A stretch of DNA of 32,000 bases from Alphaproteobacteria bacterium (GTDB lineage Bacteria; Pseudomonadota; Alphaproteobacteria; UBA2136; UBA6156): NCBI GenBank assembly GCA_027485835.1, contig JAIXQG010000002.1:710983-742982 (forward strand), in the 5' to 3' direction. Under the pieces are notes generated by a model that searched no databases, had not been told where the DNA came from, and was given only the letters and a program-made list of their open reading frames with translations. This document shows, one piece after another, positions 3,668 through 31,881 of the stretch (the first letter of the stretch is position 1; each line of letters begins with the position of its first letter). A program made the position numbers and the translations under genes.

Positions 3668-4105
3668 ATGGATATCATCGCGCAACTGAACAAAGAGAGC
3701 ATGGAAGCTCGCAACGCCAGCATCCCGGACTTTGCCGCCGGCGACACCCTGCGCGTTCACGTTAAGGTTAAAGAAGGTGACAAGACCCGCGTACAGGTAT
3801 TTGAAGGCCTGTGCATCGCCCGTCACAACAAGAGCATCGGTAGCAGCTTTACCGTACGCAAGATCTCCTTCGGTGAAGGTGTAGAGCGCGTATTCCCGCT
3901 GTACAGCCCGGTTCTGGAAAAGATTGAGCTGGTCCGTCGCGGTGAAGTGCGTCGTGCCAAGCTGTACTACCTGCGTGGCCTGACCGGTAAGGCTGCCCGT
4001 ATTGCTGAAAAGGCCCGTAAGCTGGTTCCGGCTGTGGGTTCTGCTGAAACCGCCAAGACTGCCGCTCCGGTCGATGCCGACAAGGCTGAAGGCGCCAACG
4101 CGTAA
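3668..4105 (+). CDS. rplS: 50S ribosomal protein L19
   Basis: The ORF-track start 3569 is trimmed to ATG 3668, which is preceded by GAGGAG (3655-3660). [10 protein letters not shown]...[23 protein letters not shown]...[18 protein letters not shown] is canonical L19, with an Ala/Lys-rich C-terminal tail. Confidence 0.92.
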
Positions 4106-4120
4106 GCGACTGAAAGCGTG

Positions 4121-4149
4121 AAAAGAGGTGGCCAAGGCCGCCTTTTTTT
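4121..4149 (+). terminator. Rho-independent terminator after rplS
   Basis: GGTGGC (4127-4132), loop caag, GCCGCC (4137-4142). Flanking A/T pairs extend the stem and a T7 run (4143-4149) follows. Confidence 0.75.
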
Positions 4150-4159
4150 GCGGCTTTGC

Positions 4160-4338
4160 TAAAGACGTGGTCGCCTCTTTTTTACCTAGCCTGCTAACCT
4201 ATGGACGAAGCGGAGAACGCGTTTGGATTGCGTTGTTAAAAACGTCAAATAGGGCCGCTATTAGCCATTTTTATCACCTCAACCAAACACGCTCCCGCTT
4301 CGTCATGCTAGGCAAAAAAGAGGCGACCACGTCTTTTA
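4160..4338. repeat. Long nested-hairpin element, family 2, copy 1 (179 bp)
   Basis: Stem 1 (4161-4190 with 4307-4336) pairs at 29 of 30 positions. A 10-nt one-sided bulge CTGCTAACCT lies at 4191-4200. Stem 2 is 4201-4226 with 4283-4306. The 56-nt centre (4227-4282) contains AAATAGGGCCGCTATTA (4247-4263). The plan matches 13859-14034. Confidence 0.8.
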
Positions 4339-7124: not shown

Positions 7125-7135
7125 GCTGAGGAACG

Positions 7136-7244
7136 GCGCGGGCTAAAACACTCCCACAGCACTTTTTGGCTGGGCTGAAATACTCTTTTCTGTATTCGGC
7201 GCCCCGCCAAAAAACACTGTGGAAGCGTTTATAGCTCCGCGCGC
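7136..7244. repeat. Nested-hairpin intergenic repeat, family 1, copy 2 (variant apex)
   Basis: Outer arms are GCGCGGGCTAAAAC (7136-7149) and GTTTATAGCTCCGCGCGC (7227-7244). Inner arms are CTTTTTGGCTGGGC (7162-7175) and GCCCCGCCAAAAAA (7201-7214). The apical stem is GAAATAC...GTATTC (7177-7197). Confidence 0.75.
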
Positions 7245-7275
7245 GGGGGCTTCCGCACATGGGCATTTCATGCGC

Positions 7276-7325
7276 GGTTGGCGCTACGAGATGGATGGTC
7301 TCCGGCCTTGTCTCGCGCTAAGAGG
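7276..7325. repeat. ~50-bp repeat module 2 (second copy at 29846-29895)
   Basis: GGTTGGCGCTACGAGAtggATGGtCtccGGCcttGTCTcGCGCtAAGAGG aligns with GGTTGGCGCTACGAGAgctATGGcCtgcGGCgatGTCTtGCGCcAAGAGG. The ends form an inverted repeat, TTGGCGC...GCGC(C/T)AA. Confidence 0.7.
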
Positions 7326-7342
7326 GATGCTGCGCATGGATT

Positions 7343-10057: not shown

Positions 10058-10987
10058 ATGGCGAAAATTCTGGTAACGGGTGGCGCGGGGTTTATCGGCA
10101 GCTACGTGGTGCGTGCGCTGATTGGCGGCGGCCATGACGTGATGGTGCTGGATGACTTGAGTACAGGCAAGCGTGATAATATCCCGCATGGCCGCCAGAT
10201 GGATATGATCAAGGGCGATGTGGCGGACATGGCCACGGTGGAAAAGGCTATGCAGGGCTGTGAGCATGTGATCCATCTTGCCGCGCTCGTGGATATTCCG
10301 CAGACATTAGAAAACCCGGAGCGGGCCTACCGCGTGAATGTGCAGGGTACCCACAACGTGTTGGAATGTGCGCGCAAACTGGGTTTGAGCGGGCGCCTGA
10401 TTTACGCTAGCAGCGCTGCCGTGTACGGCAATTTAAGTGACGGTGCGGTGAAGGAAGAGGACGCGGGGAATGTGAGCCTGAACAACCCTTATGCTGCTAG
10501 CAAGCGTACGGCTGAGATTCAGGCACGGATGTACAAGGACGTGTATGGCCTGAAGGTGACCACGCTGCGGATTTTTAACGCTTACGGGCCGGGTCAGGAT
10601 GAAAACGGCGGTTACAGCGGGTTGCTGAGCAAGGTGGTGGACAGCGTGCAAAACGGCACCTTGCTGACGATTTTTGGTGATGGCAGCCAGACGCGGGATT
10701 TGGTGTCGGTGCATGATGTCGCGATGATTATACGGGCGCTAGTGCAGGCACCGGTGAGTGTGGAATTGCCGTGGGTGATGAATGTGGGGAGCGGGATTGC
10801 GATTACTTTGCTGGATACCATCCGGCAGGTGGTGTCGATCAAGCGCGTGAACCCACGGGTGGAATACCGCCCCGCACGCAAGGGGGATGTAAAGCTGAGC
10901 TGTGCCGATATTACGCTGTTGCGACAGGTCTTCCCTGGTTGGAAGCCGGTAGATCTGGCGACCGGTTTGCGGCAGTGGCTGGCTTAA
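10058..10987 (+). CDS. NAD-dependent nucleotide-sugar epimerase/dehydratase (extended SDR), paralog 2
   Basis: Motifs TGGAGFIG, SSAAVYG, YAASK. It is colinear with the upstream paralog along its whole length, for example the endings RSSCADIGLLRATLPQWTPTLLADGLRQWL and KLSCADITLLRQVFPGWKPVDLATGLRQWL. Confidence 0.8.
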   Translation: MAKILVTGGAGFIGSYVVRALIGGGHDVMVLDDLSTGKRDNIPHGRQMDMIKGDVADMATVEKAMQGCEHVIHLAALVDIPQTLENPERAYRVNVQGTHNVLECARKLGLSGRLIYASSAAVYGNLSDGAVKEEDAGNVSLNNPYAASKRTAEIQARMYKDVYGLKVTTLRIFNAYGPGQDENGGYSGLLSKVVDSVQNGTLLTIFGDGSQTRDLVSVHDVAMIIRALVQAPVSVELPWVMNVGSGIAITLLDTIRQVVSIKRVNPRVEYRPARKGDVKLSCADITLLRQVFPGWKPVDLATGLRQWLA

Positions 10988-11012
10988 ACTCTTAACTTGA
11001 GGGGGGCGAACT

Positions 11013-11885
11013 ATGTACATGGTGAATGGGGTTTTAACCGCCGATAAACCGACGGTGGCGCTGGGCGATTTTGGCTTTGCGCGCGGGATTACGGTGTTTG
11101 AATTGTTCCGTGTGTATGGGCGTGTCCCGTTTAGAATGGCGGCTCACCTTAACCGGTTGGAGCGCGGGTGTGCGCTGATGGGAATTACGTTGCCGGTGAG
11201 CCGTGCGGACTTAGAGCAGCAGATTGCTATGCTGATGGCTGAACACAGTTACCCGCACAGTGTGGTGAAGATCTATGTGACGGCGGGGGAGTGTGCGGCG
11301 GCATCAGGCCTTTCCTTTGCGGCGTGTGCCGACTTTGCGCCGCAGGTGTTTATTTTGGAAGATGCGGTGAAGATGCAGCATCCGCAAGCTGCTTATGGAT
11401 TGGAAACTTACGTGCGCGGGCAAAACCTGAAAACGGTGGAGGCAATACGCGAATTGCCGGATGTGAAAACTGCCAATTACGGCATCGGGTTTGTGGCGGC
11501 GAAGCGGGCTGGTACGGCCTATGACGACGTGCTGTTTACCACACCACAGGGCCATGTGACCGAGGCGACGCGCAGCAATTTTTTTGCGGTGCTGGACGGT
11601 AAGTTGGTGACCGCCCGAAGTGGCATGCTGGACGGCATTACCCGCAGCGTGGTTTTGGAATTGGCGGCGGATGTGGGAATTGCGACCGAGGTGCGGGATA
11701 TCACCGTGGCGGAACTGGCCGGCGCGACGGAGGCGTTTACCAGCGGCAGCATTACCGAGATGGTGCCGGTGCGGAGCGTTAATGACGTGGTATTGGCCGG
11801 TGGCGACGACCGCACCCAGACGCCGGTGTATAAGGCCCTGCGCGAGGCGTTTACGGCCTTGGTGGCCAGAGAGTGTGGCCAGTAG
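11013..11885 (+). CDS. Class IV (fold-type IV) PLP aminotransferase (BCAT / D-amino-acid aminotransferase / ADC-lyase family)
   Basis: GAGGGGGG lies 6 nt upstream of ATG 11013. Motifs: GFARGITVFELFRVY, a candidate catalytic-Lys region VKTANYGIGFVAAKRA, and TEATRSNFF. Confidence 0.8.
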   Translation: MYMVNGVLTADKPTVALGDFGFARGITVFELFRVYGRVPFRMAAHLNRLERGCALMGITLPVSRADLEQQIAMLMAEHSYPHSVVKIYVTAGECAAASGLSFAACADFAPQVFILEDAVKMQHPQAAYGLETYVRGQNLKTVEAIRELPDVKTANYGIGFVAAKRAGTAYDDVLFTTPQGHVTEATRSNFFAVLDGKLVTARSGMLDGITRSVVLELAADVGIATEVRDITVAELAGATEAFTSGSITEMVPVRSVNDVVLAGGDDRTQTPVYKALREAFTALVARECGQ

Positions 11886-11887
11886 GC

Positions 11888-11916
11888 TTGACGAAACGCC
11901 TCCGGCTGCCTATTGT
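11888..11916 (+). promoter_or_regulatory. Candidate sigma70-type promoter heading a ~240-nt leader upstream of the GNAT gene
   Basis: TTGACG (11888-11893), 17-nt spacer, TATTGT (11911-11916). Pattern match only. Confidence 0.4.
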
Positions 11917-12163
11917 ACACGTATGTTTACTTCGTATACCCCCTTGGATTTGACCGCTGTGGCGGCACGGGGCGTTTTGACGGGTTCTCCGGTTCTTCTG
12001 CGACGATAGCCTGACCGTACGGCGACATTTGCCGTATGCGTTGGGTTGGTTACCTCTCTTTCGGGGATGGTTGTTTTTCTCAGCGCATACGGGAAGTGTG
12101 GTCTACCTTGGCGACATCTCCTTCCCTTTTGATTTTTATAACTATGCCCCCGAGGAGGCCGAA

Positions 12164-12898
12164 ATGAACCAACATGTGAATGGTGCAACCGAGCAGGTTG
12201 TACTGGGTGATGGCGTTGACCTGCGAGGGATCAAGCAGCCGGAGCTGAACCTGAAACTGCGGCGCTTGCGTGACCGCGACCTGCCTGCCATTTGCGCCTT
12301 GCAAAACAAGGTGAATGCCGAGCTGGTGGCCGACGGACACGGTGCCTATGTGGTGGTGCGGCGTGAGGAGAGCTTTGCGGCGCATCTGGAGGCCCTTGGC
12401 GTGATGCTGGGGGTGTTTGATGGCGAGAGGCTTGTAGCGCAGTCTTTGATGGGCCTGCCGCCGCGGGCGGACAGTGACCATGGCTGCGACTTGCAGCCGG
12501 AGGAGCCTGCCGACAAGCTGGTGGTGATGAAAGGCGTTTTGGTGGATGCGGCCTACCGTGGCAACCACCTGATGCAGCGCATGGGCGAAGTGGGCCTGGG
12601 GCTGGCCCGCCTGCGCGGACGCCACCAGCTGGTGGCCGAAGCGGCGGTGGGGAACATCGCCAGCTGGTGCAGCATGCTGGCGCTTGGTATGCGTATTGTT
12701 GCGTGTGACGAGGCGCCTTCCGACCACGAACCGCTGTATCTGGTTCGCCGCAAGGTGGCCGATAGGCCGGCGCAGACGGTTCAGCGCTACCTGAACCCAA
12801 CGCAGCCGTGGCGCGTGCAACGGAAGACGTTTGGTACTGACGGATACCACGGCGTTTGGTATCGTGGCGGCCAGATAGGCCTTGCCGCTGCCGATTAA
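12164..12898 (+). CDS. GNAT-family N-acetyltransferase with a C-terminal extension
   Basis: The ORF-track start 12029 is trimmed to ATG 12164, which is preceded by GAGGAGG (12152-12158). An acetyl-CoA-binding-type segment is present: VLVDAAYRGNHLMQRMGEVGLGLARLRG. Confidence 0.65.
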   Translation: MNQHVNGATEQVVLGDGVDLRGIKQPELNLKLRRLRDRDLPAICALQNKVNAELVADGHGAYVVVRREESFAAHLEALGVMLGVFDGERLVAQSLMGLPPRADSDHGCDLQPEEPADKLVVMKGVLVDAAYRGNHLMQRMGEVGLGLARLRGRHQLVAEAAVGNIASWCSMLALGMRIVACDEAPSDHEPLYLVRRKVADRPAQTVQRYLNPTQPWRVQRKTFGTDGYHGVWYRGGQIGLAAAD

Positions 12899-12920
12899 GC
12901 CCCACTGTGAGCGAGACATC

Positions 12921-12949
12921 AGGCCGCGGGAGATTATCTCTCGCGGCCT
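12921..12949 (+). terminator. Hairpin terminator after the GNAT gene
   Basis: AGGCCGCGGGAGA (12921-12933), loop tta, TCTCTCGCGGCCT (12937-12949): a 13-bp stem with one G-U pair. The tail is only weakly T-rich (gTcaTTaTT). Confidence 0.55.
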
Positions 12950-12975
12950 GTCATTATTGAGATAGGTAAACGAAG

Positions 12976-13851
12976 ATGGAGAGACAGGACATGATTGCCA
13001 GTTATAGCTTTGCCGGTTTGAAGCCCGGCCCCCACCTGTTGGTGATGGGGGCTGTGCACGGTGACGAGCTGTGTGGGCCACGTGCGATTGAGCGGGTTAG
13101 GGCCGAGATACGTGATGGGCGGTTGCCGCTTGAGTGCGGGCGGGTAACGTTTGTACCCGTGGCCAACCCTGCCGCTTATGCCGTGCGGCGGCGTTATGTG
13201 GAGAAGAACCTCAACCGTATTTTTGCGCGACATGAGGCGCCAAGCTGTGAGGAAGAGCGCATTGCCACCGCGCTGTGCGATGTGGTGGACAGCTGTGATT
13301 ACCTGCTGGATATCCATTCCTTCCATACGCCGGGGGTGCCGTTTGTGTTTCGGGATTACACGGATGCCACGACTGTGGCGTTTGCCGAGAATTTGGGTTT
13401 CCCCTATGTGTTGAGCGGGTGGCCGGAATTGTATGGCACCGAGGCGGCGAGTGGATTGAACATGGGGGATACGGTGCAGTATGCCCATAGTCAAGGTAAG
13501 ACGGCGGTACTGGTGGAGTGCGGCCAACATGAGGAAGAGGCGGCGGTAGCGTTGGCCGAAGCGTGTATTGCTAACGCCTTGCGACATTTAGGCCTTGTAG
13601 GCGGTGGAGCGCAGGTGGAAGCACCGCGTGAGGTGCGGTTTAGCCATGTTTGGGTGATGCCTGAACAGGGTGGCAAGCTGCTGCGTGGCTGGCAGAACCT
13701 CGATAGCGTGGTGGCGGGTGAACCGTTGGCGCAGTTGGCGGACGGCACGCTGCTGGTGGCCCCGCGTGATGGCGCGATGATTATGCCCAAGCAGGATGCC
13801 GTGGCCGGTGAGGAGTGGTTTTATTTTGGCGAGACGGTTGTACGCGCTTAA
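12976..13851 (+). CDS. Succinylglutamate desuccinylase/aspartoacylase (AstE/AspA) family zinc hydrolase
   Basis: LLVMGAVHGDELCG (H-x-x-E zinc ligands) and LLDIHSFHTPG, typical of this M14-like deacylase family. The start is ATG 12976 or ATG 12991. Confidence 0.7.
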   Translation: MERQDMIASYSFAGLKPGPHLLVMGAVHGDELCGPRAIERVRAEIRDGRLPLECGRVTFVPVANPAAYAVRRRYVEKNLNRIFARHEAPSCEEERIATALCDVVDSCDYLLDIHSFHTPGVPFVFRDYTDATTVAFAENLGFPYVLSGWPELYGTEAASGLNMGDTVQYAHSQGKTAVLVECGQHEEEAAVALAEACIANALRHLGLVGGGAQVEAPREVRFSHVWVMPEQGGKLLRGWQNLDSVVAGEPLAQLADGTLLVAPRDGAMIMPKQDAVAGEEWFYFGETVVRA

Positions 13852-13858
13852 ACGCCCT

Positions 13859-14034
13859 TAAAGCTATTCCCCTTATTCTTTACACATTCTGTAAACCTGC
13901 GGGCGGGCTAAAAAGGCATCTGGATTATGTCAAAAAACCAGAAAAATAGGGCCGCTATTATCCTAGTTTTTCGCCCTAACCAGCTCCCTTTTTATCTCCG
14001 CCATAATATGTAAAGAATAACGGGAATAGCTTTA
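13859..14034. repeat. Long nested-hairpin element, family 2, copy 2 (176 bp)
   Basis: Stem 1 (13860-13888 with 14005-14033) pairs at 27 of 29 positions. The 10-nt bulge CTGTAAACCT lies at 13889-13898. Stem 2 is 13899-13923 with 13980-14002. The 56-nt centre (13924-13979) carries the same 17-mer AAATAGGGCCGCTATTA (13944-13960). The right end overlaps the mutY stop codon. Confidence 0.8.
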
Positions 14035-25592: not shown

Positions 25593-25613
25593 TTTGCTCA
25601 AGCTAACAGAACT

Positions 25614-25724
25614 GCGCGGGCTAAAACAGCCCCCCAGCACTTTTTGGCGTGGCTTATGTACTCCATGCCTGTACACAGCGCCCCGCCAAAAAGCACCGGG
25701 ATTTCTGTTTGTAGCCCCGCGCGC
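25614..25724. repeat. Nested-hairpin intergenic repeat, family 1, copy 3
   Basis: Outer arms are GCGCGGGCTAAAACAG (25614-25629) and CTGTTTGTAGCCCCGCGCGC (25705-25724). Inner arms are CTTTTTGGCGTGGC (25640-25653) and GCCCCGCCAAAAAG (25680-25693). The apex is TTATGTAC-N9-GTACAC (25654-25676). Confidence 0.8.
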
Positions 25725-25764
25725 AGGGGCAACGTCGCTGCGCGCCGTACATTGGGCTGTGTAT

Positions 25765-29654: not shown

Positions 29655-29680
29655 ATTAACCTTTTCATTAGCATGGATTA

Positions 29681-29789
29681 GTACGGGCGGAAACGGCCCC
29701 CCAGCACTTTTTGGCGTAGCTTATGTACAATTTGTGCCGTACACGGCGCTCCGCCAAAAAGCACCGGGATGTCCGTTTCTGCCTCGTAC
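29681..29789. repeat. Nested-hairpin intergenic repeat, family 1, copy 4
   Basis: Outer arms are GTACGGGCGGAAACGG (29681-29696) and CCGTTTCTGCCTCGTAC (29773-29789). Inner arms are CTTTTTGGCGTAGC (29707-29720) and GCTCCGCCAAAAAG (29748-29761). The apex is TTATGTAC-N10-GTACAC (29721-29744). Confidence 0.8.
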
Positions 29790-29845
29790 GCAGGGGGTTA
29801 CGCTTTGCGTTGCCCTTCGGGTCCGCCGAAGGGCGACTCTTCGGC

Positions 29846-29895
29846 GGTTGGCGCTACGAGAGCTATGGCCTGCGGCGATGTCTTGCGCCAAGAGG
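29846..29895. repeat. ~50-bp repeat module 2 (copy of 7276-7325)
   Basis: See 7276-7325. The terminal inverted repeat is TTGGCGC (29848-29854) with GCGCCAA (29885-29891). Confidence 0.7.
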
Positions 29896-29933
29896 AAGGC
29901 CTTTGACCTGACTTTTTATTGAAAACTGGCGGT

Positions 29934-29979: not shown

Positions 29980-31881
29980 ATGCCGGTTTCGATTACTGCC
30001 AATGTGTCTGCGCGTTATGCCCAGGCCAGTTTGACGCGCCAGAATGAGGCGATTACCCAAGGGACATTGCGCATGAGCAGTGGCCAGCGCGTGTTAAGTG
30101 CGGCCGATGATGCGTCGTCGATGGCGATTGGCTCCAGCCTCAAGATTGAAAACGCCGGTGTGAAAAGCGCTATTCTCAACGCCACCAGCGGCACCAGCAT
30201 GTTACAGATTGCGGATGGCGCGCTGGGCCAGATTTCTGAACTGTTAACCCGCATGAAGGCGTTGGCGACGCAGTCGAGCAGTGGCCAGTATGATGATGCC
30301 ACCCGCCTGTTGCTGGATGGGGAGTTTCAGGGCCTGAAAGCGGAAATCGAGCGTGTAGCGAATGGCACCACGTTTAACGATGTGAAGATGTTGGCGGGTG
30401 AAAAAGATTTTGATCTGGCCTATGGCGCGACCGGTATTGCCGGAATTTCGAATGTGCGGTTTGACCAGACGCTTGTGGGGAGCGATCAGTCGTTCCGTTA
30501 CTCGTATGACTCGGCCAGCGAAAACTTTACCCTGACACGGGTTGATGGTGGTGCGACGACGACCCAGACTATCAACATTACCGCGCTGCTGAACGGTACT
30601 GTGGGTGTGGGTGGCAACCTTGCCAACAACCAGACACTGGAGCTTGGTTTTAGCCAGCTGGGCGTGACGTTGACACTGGGTGCAGGCTTTTTGCGGACCC
30701 AAGATATTACCACCGGTGTGACCGTGGCCGATGGTGGCGTGATGGATGTGGCGTCGTCGTCGTTCGTTGGTACCGGTAACGCCCTGCCTGCCGCGGCCAC
30801 CACGACATTGACCGCCCTTGGTGCGGCGTTTAATGCCACCACCGGTGCGTTGAACTTGCCGACTACCAGTGACGGTACGGTGTTGCGTCTGGATGCGTTG
30901 GCGGGGATCAGTTACGCCGTGAACGGTGGGGCGATTGGTGCCGTGGGTGCTGCCAGCCCCGACCTTGCCAGTGCAGGCCCGACCACCGTGGACGTGTACG
31001 CCACCAGTGGCACCAGCCGTGTGTTGGTGGGCCGTGTGACGCTGGGAGACACAAGCTCTCCGGCGGCGGGTGCGGATGCGATTTCGCTTGCGGTCAAAAC
31101 ACCGGGAGCGGCGGGCATACCGGTCGCAACCGTGGCCGACCTGACCGCGCTTGGCGGTGTGTTTAGTACAGCGACCGGTGCCCTGACCCTGCCCACGACC
31201 AGTAATGGCACGACCGTGACGTTGGATGCTGTGCCCGGTGTAAGCTACGCCGTGAACGGCGGTGCGGTAGGTGCCAGTGGGGCTGCTAGCGGTGACCTTG
31301 TAGGAGCTGGCCCGGTGACCGTGGACGTGTATGTGGATGCCGCCGCGGGCGGGCAGGTATTGCTGGGCCGTGTGACCTTGGGTGATGTGGCTGCCACGGG
31401 TGTAGGCACCGGCAGCCTGACCGTAAATGTAGGTGCAGGGTTGATGACCGCCACGGATAGCGGAGAGGTGAAATCGACCTACCTGACCTATAAGGTTGGT
31501 ACCGGTGTGGCGGCGGGGATTGACACGATTGGGGTGGAGATTCCGGCGATGACCCTGACGGCGCTGAACCTTGAAACTGTGACGATTGCAACCCAAACCA
31601 ATGCGGATCTGGCGATTGATGCCATGACGGCGGCGCTGGCGGTGCTGAACCAAGGCCGCGCCAACGTGGGTGCCCAGCAGTTGCGGATGGAAGCTGTGGC
31701 GCGCAGTTTGGGTGTAGTTTCGGAAAACAACGAAGCGGCCAAGAGCTCTCTGATTGACGTGGATGTGGCGGCGGAAATTACCGAGATCACGACGAATCAG
31801 GCCATGATGGAGGCGAGCATTGCGATGCTGGGCCGTGCCAACCAGTTGCCGGATATCTTGCTCGAACTGCTGCGTAACTAA
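29980..31881 (+). CDS. fliC: Flagellin (633 aa) with a long Ala/Gly/Thr/Val-rich central region
   Basis: The conserved flagellin N-domain is present (RMSSGQRVLSAADDASSMAIGSSL...MLQIADGALGQISELLTRMKALATQS), as is the C-domain (RANVGAQQLRMEAVARSL...IDVDVAAEITEITTNQAMMEASIAMLGRANQLP). AGAGGAG serves as SD. Confidence 0.92.
   Translation: MPVSITANVSARYAQASLTRQNEAITQGTLRMSSGQRVLSAADDASSMAIGSSLKIENAGVKSAILNATSGTSMLQIADGALGQISELLTRMKALATQSSSGQYDDATRLLLDGEFQGLKAEIERVANGTTFNDVKMLAGEKDFDLAYGATGIAGISNVRFDQTLVGSDQSFRYSYDSASENFTLTRVDGGATTTQTINITALLNGTVGVGGNLANNQTLELGFSQLGVTLTLGAGFLRTQDITTGVTVADGGVMDVASSSFVGTGNALPAAATTTLTALGAAFNATTGALNLPTTSDGTVLRLDALAGISYAVNGGAIGAVGAASPDLASAGPTTVDVYATSGTSRVLVGRVTLGDTSSPAAGADAISLAVKTPGAAGIPVATVADLTALGGVFSTATGALTLPTTSNGTTVTLDAVPGVSYAVNGGAVGASGAASGDLVGAGPVTVDVYVDAAAGGQVLLGRVTLGDVAATGVGTGSLTVNVGAGLMTATDSGEVKSTYLTYKVGTGVAAGIDTIGVEIPAMTLTALNLETVTIATQTNADLAIDAMTAALAVLNQGRANVGAQQLRMEAVARSLGVVSENNEAAKSSLIDVDVAAEITEITTNQAMMEASIAMLGRANQLPDILLELLRN
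30808..31386 (+). repeat. Internal tandem duplication within the flagellin variable region (period 333 nt = 111 aa)
   Basis: Unit cores 30808-31050 and 31141-31386 encode LTALGAAFNATTGALNLPTTSDGTVLRLDALAGISYAVNGGAIGAVGAAS...VLVGRVTLGD and LTALGGVFSTATGALTLPTTSNGTTVTLDAVPGVSYAVNGGAVGASGAAS...VLLGRVTLGD. Confidence 0.85.

Follow-up and report, generated by a model that had tools for sequence, protein, structure and literature searches.

Compensatory changes maintain the hairpins of two known kinds of mobile repeat, the REPINs and bcr1 (PMC3116915; PMC3184786). REPINs consist of two repetitive extragenic palindromic (REP) units, which together form a hairpin, and are mobilized by the RAYT transposases, which belong to the Y1 type (Bertels & Rainey 2011, PMC3116915). 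The element bcr1, found in the Bacillus cereus group, is about 155 bp long and is described, in the account given in PMC3184786, as a long hairpin with compensatory base-pair changes (Okstad 2004, Klevan 2007); the Rickettsia palindromic elements (RPEs) are listed in the same source (Ogata 2000). Here, we describe two elements, c1 (positions 4160–4338) and c2 (13859–14034), in a 32-kb stretch of contig JAIXQG010000002.1, referred to throughout as the window, from an uncultivated alphaproteobacterial lineage with 58–59% G+C and a strong GC skew. An earlier examination of the letters alone, here called the sequence-only reading, had taken the two for a structured nucleic acid that was the opposite of a mobile element and matched nothing previously described. 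Our analysis leads to a different view: c1 and c2 are probably non-autonomous mobile palindromic hairpin repeats of the general kind to which REPINs, bcr1 and the miniature inverted-repeat transposable elements (MITEs) belong, and constitute a small new family, family 2, in this lineage.

The c1 element lies between rplS and a conserved 240-aa gene, ending 41 nt before the start of the latter. The rplS terminator (4127–4149, + strand; GGTGGCC-AA-GGCCGCC followed by T7) is located 10 nt upstream of c1 and is conserved in the related locus L039. One piece of the c1 right arm, AAAAGAGGCGACCA (4310–4330), matches the left half of this terminator, AAAAGAGGTGGCCA (4113–4150), at 12 of 14 positions, possibly by chance, since both resemble terminator halves. 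The c2 element is located between two convergent genes, an AstE-like gene and mutY. The two elements are long imperfect hairpins of the same geometry, as previously proposed. In c1, two 33-nt arms (4161–4193 and 4304–4336) with 94% complementarity are separated by 110 nt, and in c2, the arms (13859–13891 and 14002–14034), also 33 nt, are 91% complementary with a spacing of exactly 110 nt again. Each element folds as one long hairpin, the RNA minimum free energy of c1 being −89.0 kcal/mol (z −11.2) and that of c2 −62.7 kcal/mol (z −7.9), values that none of 200 shuffled sequences matched in either case.

The outer stem of c1 pairs AAAGACGTGGTCGCCTCTTTTTTACCTAGC (4161–4190, + strand) with GCTAGGCAAAAAAGAGGCGACCACGTCTTT (4307–4336, + strand) at 29 of 30 positions, the count originally given. 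It is followed, on the left side only, by an unpaired stretch consisting of CTGCTAACCT plus AT (4191–4202, + strand), by the inner stem (4203–4226 paired with 4283–4304, + strand) and by the centre (4227–4282, + strand), which is flanked by TGGATT and AACCA. The left-only stretch of c2, CTGTAAACCT (13889–13898, + strand), is identical to that of c1 (4191–4200) at 8 of 10 positions; the end of c2 reads TAAAGCTATT and its inner stem is formed by GGGCTAAAAAG and CTTTTTATCTCCGCC. Both elements have the TAAAG...CTTTA termini that had been noticed before, and the TGG...CCA said to close the centre is present in both as TGGATT...AACCA, exactly 17 nt from the central 17-mer on each side. The 56-nt centre had been regarded as a separate unpaired part, but it folds as a continuation of the imperfect hairpin up to an apex of the form AATAG-GGCCG-CTATT. 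This apex is the 17-mer AAATAGGGCCGCTATTA, found at 4247–4263 in c1 and 13944–13960 in c2 (both + strand), and at no other position in the window, even when up to three mismatches were tolerated (chance expectation 0.04).

A scan for the 17-mer in 185,579 species genomes, with one genome per species, yielded 27 loci, 25 of which were chance matches. The other two were true relatives, each with a full copy that also has the identical 17-mer. The first, L005, adjoins lpdA in a metagenome-assembled genome (MAG) labelled Blastochloris viridis, which may be the same or nearly the same organism as the source of the window. The second, L018A, adjoins a ribbon-helix-helix (RHH) gene and mutL in a pond alphaproteobacterial MAG, at the locus L018. 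The G+C content of both loci is that of the window, 58.4–58.6%. The labels "Blastochloris viridis" and "Pseudomonas fluorescens" carried by MAGs of this lineage look like mislabels, and the lineage has contigs measuring 1.0–1.4 Mb as well as flagellar genes and DciA. The first 600 nt of L018 (1–600) form a cluster of debris beside the RHH gene, which encodes 72 aa: in addition to the full copy at 405–585, there is an internally deleted copy at 120–211, a solo end at 350–366 and another palindrome at 254–319. The TAAAGCTGTTTRAC ends at 120–136 and 350–366 stand in inverted orientation and might be the boundaries of a composite element of 247 bp.

The full copies reached thus number four (c1, c2, L005 and L018A). 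L005 and L018 were found by means of the 17-mer itself, and only the comparison between c1 and c2 is unbiased for its conservation; in that comparison, the 17-mer is conserved at 17/17 positions against a background of ~55–60% identity. The copies have been given no explanation by known families: the window has no Rfam match at gathering scores, and in E-value mode only plant miRNA hairpin models appeared, at 24 bits versus thresholds of 75–95. There was no blastn match to c1 in plasmid and phage collections, and no match to the core 13-mer, on either strand, in a full-text literature search.

Every copy begins with TAAAG and finishes with CTTTA. The c2, L005 and L018 copies share a longer end, TAAAGCWRTT, and an inner stem, GACGGGCTAAAA...TTTTATCTCCGCCAT, which three of the four full copies thus retain. 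Across 149 kb of related DNA, TAAAGCTRTT was confined to the ends of elements and to the c2-orthologous site in L051. The c1 element deviates in both its end and its inner stem, and belongs to a divergent subfamily, with c2 representing the main one. These results modify the claim that the stems of the two copies are unrelated in sequence yet paired. Pairing is indeed maintained through changes on both sides, and beyond TAAAG, the outer arms are close to random, with 8 of 26 positions matching between c1 and c2 in a manual alignment. The inner stem, however, is ~60% identical between c1 and c2 when aligned, with A-T to G-C double changes. Since the c2, L005 and L018 copies share both end and inner stem, the stems are not free to vary, and the impression of free covariation arose from comparing two old, diverged subfamilies. 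The centre outside the 17-mer is 50–58% identical between c1 and c2. The 10-nt left-only bulge, previously seen as a conserved part, is present in c1 and c2 as described, but is an indel that only these two have in common: L005 and L018B lack it, and the bulge in L018A is an unrelated 14-nt tandem duplication.

That the family is a structured nucleic acid under constraint, as had been suggested, is supported by the pattern of pairing. Over the four full copies, 94.7% of cells were paired and 33 of 66 pairs had changed on both sides, a pairing level reached by 0 of 500 shuffles; controls with a slid register gave 42–54%. The outer arms are 91–97% complementary within a copy, while whole-arm identity between copies is 57–74%. 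In all four copies, the − strand folds 15–20 kcal/mol better than the + strand. Among transition-type mismatches in the arms, G·T wobbles numbered 21 on the − strand and 3 on the + strand (binomial p = 1.4e-4), and the positions concerned mostly differed from copy to copy. Where the genomic strand is G-rich (GC skew +0.21), the elements themselves are C-rich (−0.08 to −0.21). A mutation bias connected with GC skew was considered as the source of the wobble asymmetry and rejected, as it predicts the opposite sign. The asymmetry is thus unlikely to be a mutational by-product, because such a bias would place the wobbles on the other strand, and it suggests that what is constrained is a single strand in its folded form.

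Evidence for mobility comes from orthologous sites. The gene order around c1, trmD-rplS-hypothetical-SLT-rnhB, is kept in relatives whose L19 proteins are 88–95% identical. The spacer between rplS and the next gene measures 274 bp in the window versus 103 bp in L039, 133 bp in L040, 35 bp in L044 and 150 bp in L052, and c1 is absent from it in all four of these relatives. The flanks in L039 align to both borders of c1, and the empty site there reads GCGTTTAAAGGGG, which contains TTTAAAG. At the 3′ end of mutY, c2 is absent in seven relatives (L040, L044, L047, L048, L051, L052 and L053). The elements are thus gained or lost at otherwise conserved loci and dispersed to unrelated ones, with conserved ends, compensatory pairing and strand asymmetry. 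Absence from orthologous sites, presence at unrelated loci elsewhere, truncated copies and conserved extreme ends all contradict the view that this is the opposite of a mobile element. Copies do mark insertion polymorphisms, here between relatives, a point that the sequence-only reading had proposed to check; overall, its interpretation is partly supported.

All copies are located at gene 3′ ends or between genes, with the TAAAG...CTTTA ends next to T/A: TA stands at both ends of c2, L005 and L018A, and in c1 the left side has TA and the right side T+TA. An element can supply the stop codon of its neighbour. Read on the − strand, the terminal TAA of c2 is the stop codon of mutY (14032–14034, − strand), and the L018A end contains the stop of the RHH gene. 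In L051, AstE and mutY are adjacent as in the window, and the two genes overlap by TTAA (4 bp); in the window, this overlap is replaced by c2. The L051 sequence at the position of c2, TAAAGCTGTTCCCC, is identical to the c2 end TAAAGCTATTCCCC at 13 of 14 positions, including a CCCC specific to c2, and encodes the C-terminus of AstE; the similarity to c2 stops after these 14 nt. Of two possible readings, a deletion of ~192 nt that left a solo end in L051 is favoured over copying of the flank, because the same end occurs at unrelated loci in L005 and L018. If so, c2 would be old, as the AstE proteins are only 73% identical. A comparison of the C-termini of AstE homologues did not distinguish a deletion remnant from an original target in L051, as these tails vary too much.

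Other differences were observed at the same place. In the more distant relatives L052 (8333–8427) and L053 (~11140–11177), a different palindrome (GGCTATAAACGGTTCC...GGAGCCGTTTTAGCC) is present at the 3′ end of mutY, which seems to be a hot spot for hairpin repeats. Between the glycosyltransferase/epimerase and mutY, the window has genes (10058–13851) that are missing in relatives, as seen in comparison with L044 and L048. This variable block comprises a second epimerase, a class IV aminotransferase, a 244-aa protein and the AstE/AspA-like gene, and c2 lies at its edge.

The window contains a second set of hairpin repeats of ~110–120 nt, family 1, related to family 2. Copies are located at 664–785, 7128–7250, 25606–25732 and 29672–29795, and at 2134–2256 in L039; their basal stem, CGGGCTAAAA...TTTATAGCTCCGC, is shared with the c2-type inner stem. 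L040 and L044 lack the copy that lies between SLT and rnhB. The outer stems of family 1 covary (GGGCTAAAACAG/CTGTTTGTAGCCC versus GGGCGGAAACGG/CCGTTTCTGCC), and the right ends resemble REP sequences, with (G/A)TAGC followed by a GC-rich palindrome. The − form folds 9–15 kcal/mol better, and orientation and strand asymmetry are the same as in family 2. The local GC skew is clear for nine hairpins of the two families, six in the window, two in L018 and one in L039, and in all nine the leading strand carries the C-rich form. GC skew is very strong (about ±0.2–0.3) in the window, L040, L044 and L018, where nearly all genes are on the G-rich strand. The uniform orientation is consistent with elements inserting into, or surviving on, a single strand at the replication fork. 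Transposons with a single-stranded DNA (ssDNA) intermediate reportedly show such a strand preference at the fork (Ton-Hoang 2010, as cited in PMC3116915). The orientation of the hairpins is, however, confounded with that of the genes.

Under the reading that we favour, a family of mobile hairpin repeats, an enzyme whose gene lies at another place in the genome would mobilize the elements in trans. Required, presumably, are an extended hairpin formed by one particular strand (the window's reverse strand) and a few conserved pieces: the extreme ends, the basal part of the inner stem and the AATAG-GGCCG-CTATT apex. The sequence of the ~20-bp middle of the outer arms would not be required, which would explain why the arms differ between copies yet pair within each copy. 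The single-strand constraint and the orientation relative to replication would fit an ssDNA intermediate, as in the REPIN/RAYT system and IS200/IS605, although a constraint at the RNA level could be at work instead. Effects on the host, from a large hairpin behind rplS or between the convergent AstE-like and mutY genes, are probably by-products.

Several observations weigh against this reading. No transposase, RAYT or autonomous partner was found among the called genes of the window and the few related loci. As c1 has only TAAAG in common with the other ends, a single end-binding transposase is hard to picture. The sequences TA, TAA and TTAA are palindromic and merge with the element ends, and no unambiguous target-site duplication was seen. 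Absence from orthologous sites could partly reflect loss, since palindromes are easily deleted, and the 14-nt piece in L051 suggests that c2 may be old. Only four full copies were reached, two of them through the 17-mer itself, and neither an nhmmer profile nor a covariance model (R1) revealed an extra full copy in ~140 kb of related DNA; the density seen is two copies in the 32-kb window versus none in ~100 kb of non-redundant DNA from relatives. Searches of the JGI metagenomes with the core plus AACC gave nine chance matches and no real copy; in viral contigs, the 17-mer scan gave one chance match and two gapped-pattern scans no real copy. Finally, the orientation bias is confounded with gene orientation, as most genes are on the leading strand.

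A bolder version of the mobile-repeat reading would unite families 1 and 2 in a superfamily, resident in a genome of ~1 Mb and spreading as one folded strand by means of a structure-reading enzyme, whether RAYT/HUH-like or of another type. Sequence would be read only at the base, the apex and the extreme ends, and the arms could either vary freely or be formed anew, whenever the element moves, from one of the arms or the DNA alongside. We consider this extension unlikely, but if it were true, it would represent a chromosomal mobile element with attC-like recognition of structure rather than sequence and a fixed orientation relative to the replication fork.

The strong covariation and the near confinement of G·U-type wobbles to one strand are also what might be expected of a stand-alone gene for a structured noncoding RNA, transcribed from the − strand, in which apex and bulge would be functional single-stranded motifs and the stems would covary under selection on RNA structure. 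The composition of the elements, which opposes the genomic skew, and the presence of the − form in the 3′ untranslated regions of mutY (c2) and lpdA (L005) agree with this. An RNA gene, however, would not be expected to be absent at orthologous sites in close relatives, to have unrelated neighbours in each genome or to occur as truncated copies. Moreover, the bulge is not conserved across the family, Rfam provided no match, and the orientation relative to transcription is inconsistent, with no − strand gene upstream of c1 and L018A following its gene in the + form. A promoter scan found no promoter-like site near c1 or c2, but was uninformative. We therefore regard an RNA gene as rather improbable.

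The position of every copy at a gene 3′ end or between genes could also mean that the repeat has been adopted by the host and acts in cis, as a large terminator, an insulator or a stabilizer of mRNA 3′ ends, with pairing kept through its benefit to the host. The replacement of the AstE/mutY overlap seen in L051, the stops provided to mutY and the RHH gene, and the CUUUUAAUU that follows the c1 hairpin are consistent with such a role. Still, c1 stands directly behind the complete and conserved rplS terminator, and would hence be redundant there, and its better-folding strand is antisense to rplS; the relatives, meanwhile, manage without an element at the same sites. A terminator scan called nothing here, to which little weight can be given, as it missed the rplS terminator as well. 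Adoption by the host as the main explanation for the pairing is about as improbable as an RNA gene.

We also considered that only the core is mobile and that the outer arms are made anew at each insertion by fold-back synthesis, as an inverted copy of one arm or of flanking target DNA. This would account for the three or four different arms, each 91–97% paired, found in three or four copies, and for the match between the c2 arm and the orthologous L051 site, which covers 13 of 14 nt at the end of the arm; the L039 empty site TAAAGGGGTGG may likewise be compared with the c1 end TAAAGACGTGG. However, TAAAGCWRTT is also found at the unrelated L018 and L005 loci and therefore belongs to the element rather than to the flank. 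The L051 similarity covers 14 nt of an arm of ~30 nt and is more simply explained by the 192-nt deletion that left a solo end, and the GTGG of L039 can be aligned equally well with the right flank. Neither the one-sided 10-nt indel nor the wobble mismatches would survive fold-back copying. We regard this model as quite improbable. The idea that a core had entered an already existing palindrome or terminator loop was rejected, as the L039 empty site lacks the arms and the c1 arm halves are in the wrong order. A hidden peptide gene was likewise ruled out, since stops break every frame in most copies; the elements, at 165–180 bp, have no coding capacity, the open reading frames across them, including those with KDVVASFLPS on both strands of c1, are palindrome artefacts, as already recognized, and a protein search with a concatenated six-frame query found no homologues of translations across the element.

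Two further repeats were observed in the window. A conserved motif of ~79 nt (...GCGGTTGGCGCTACGAGA...GTCT(C/T)GCGC(T/C)AAGAGG...) is present at 7252–7330 and 29822–29900, directly upstream of rnhB and of a flagellin gene, and a family 1 hairpin immediately precedes it at both places; it was also found in L039 (~3670–3700) and in L048 (~4230–4260, − strand). The motif had no Rfam match and could be a shared leader or regulatory element. The flagellin gene, which encodes 633 aa, contains a direct repeat of 190 nt (30809–30998 and 31142–31331) with 71% identity, corresponding to an internal duplication of its variable domain.

As the evidence stands, c1 and c2 are elements of an ordinary kind with some unusual details. 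They add a repeat family for a poorly known alphaproteobacterial lineage with small genomes, and offer a clean case of a mobile repeat constrained by the structure of one strand rather than by the sequence of its arms. In practical terms, they serve as markers of insertions and deletions by which close relatives differ, create spurious open reading frames and can supply stop codons, as for mutY. If the single-strand, replication-oriented behaviour were to hold genome-wide, the logic of ssDNA-type transposition known from REPIN/RAYT and IS200/IS605 would extend to a new type of element, and the enzyme would be worth finding.

Of the described systems, REPINs share with family 2 their non-autonomous nature, their intergenic position and their organization as a hairpin on the 100-bp scale made of two inverted arms, as well as compensatory changes that keep the hairpin, a proposed action as folded ssDNA or RNA, and solo arms left as remnants. 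Family 1 alone adds a further likeness, its ends of (G/A)TAGC plus GC-rich palindrome being similar to GTAG-tagged REPs. In REPINs, however, the ends are invariant and the spacer varies, whereas family 2 copies share 5–10 nt of their ends, vary over the next ~20 bp and have a conserved inner stem and apex. The family 2 ends, TAAAG(C), are AT-rich and lack the GTAG or CGTC head of a GC-rich palindrome of 20–40 nt, and the copy number seen is low (two per 32-kb window). The likeness to bcr1 lies in the similar size, the patchy distribution between related strains and the long hairpin kept by compensation. That element comes from another phylum, has no sequence similarity to the c1/c2 family, and has clear 5-bp direct repeats and known transcription. 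Like family 2, the RPEs are palindromic, belong to alphaproteobacteria with small genomes and have no known transposase, and their size is 105–146 bp; RPEs, compared here by description only, are often found in frame inside genes in the low-G+C Rickettsia.

Classical bacterial MITEs with TA duplication, such as Correia/NEMIS of Neisseria and the MITEs derived from IS630, resemble family 2 in being shorter than 300 bp and non-coding, with terminal inverted repeats (33 nt and 91–94% complementary in c1 and c2), in having multiple copies at non-homologous loci and insertion polymorphism between relatives, in the T/A at both ends (three of four copies) and in a location at gene ends that can alter stop codons. 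In contrast, the arm sequence common to family 2 copies extends over only the first 5–10 nt, and the terminal inverted repeats are not conserved between subfamilies; the whole element is one hairpin with strand-asymmetric pairing, and no parent insertion sequence was found in the window and the few loci. The Correia/NEMIS elements of Neisseria have a 26-nt terminal inverted repeat beginning TATAGTGGATTA, and the end sequences of family 2 differ from it.

The attC sites of integrons are recognized by structure: one strand folds, extrahelical bases matter and the orientation is fixed relative to replication. Family 2 is similar in these respects, but it lacks the R″/R′ boxes (RYYYAAC/GTTRRRY), an integrase and a cassette array, its ends being TAAAG/CTTTA and its neighbours rplS, mutY, lpdA and the RHH gene. 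The apex is conserved in family 2 and variable in attC, and family 2 elements are about twice the size of attC. With IS200/IS605 elements, family 2 shares the orientation bias relative to replication, a common behaviour that is no proof of membership. IS200/IS605 elements have two different subterminal hairpins, no terminal inverted repeats and insertion 3′ of a fixed tetra- or pentanucleotide, whereas family 2 is one continuous palindrome with inverted ends. Family 2 is thus best filed as a new family of the known mobile-hairpin-repeat kind, unusual in its variable mid-arms and conserved apex.

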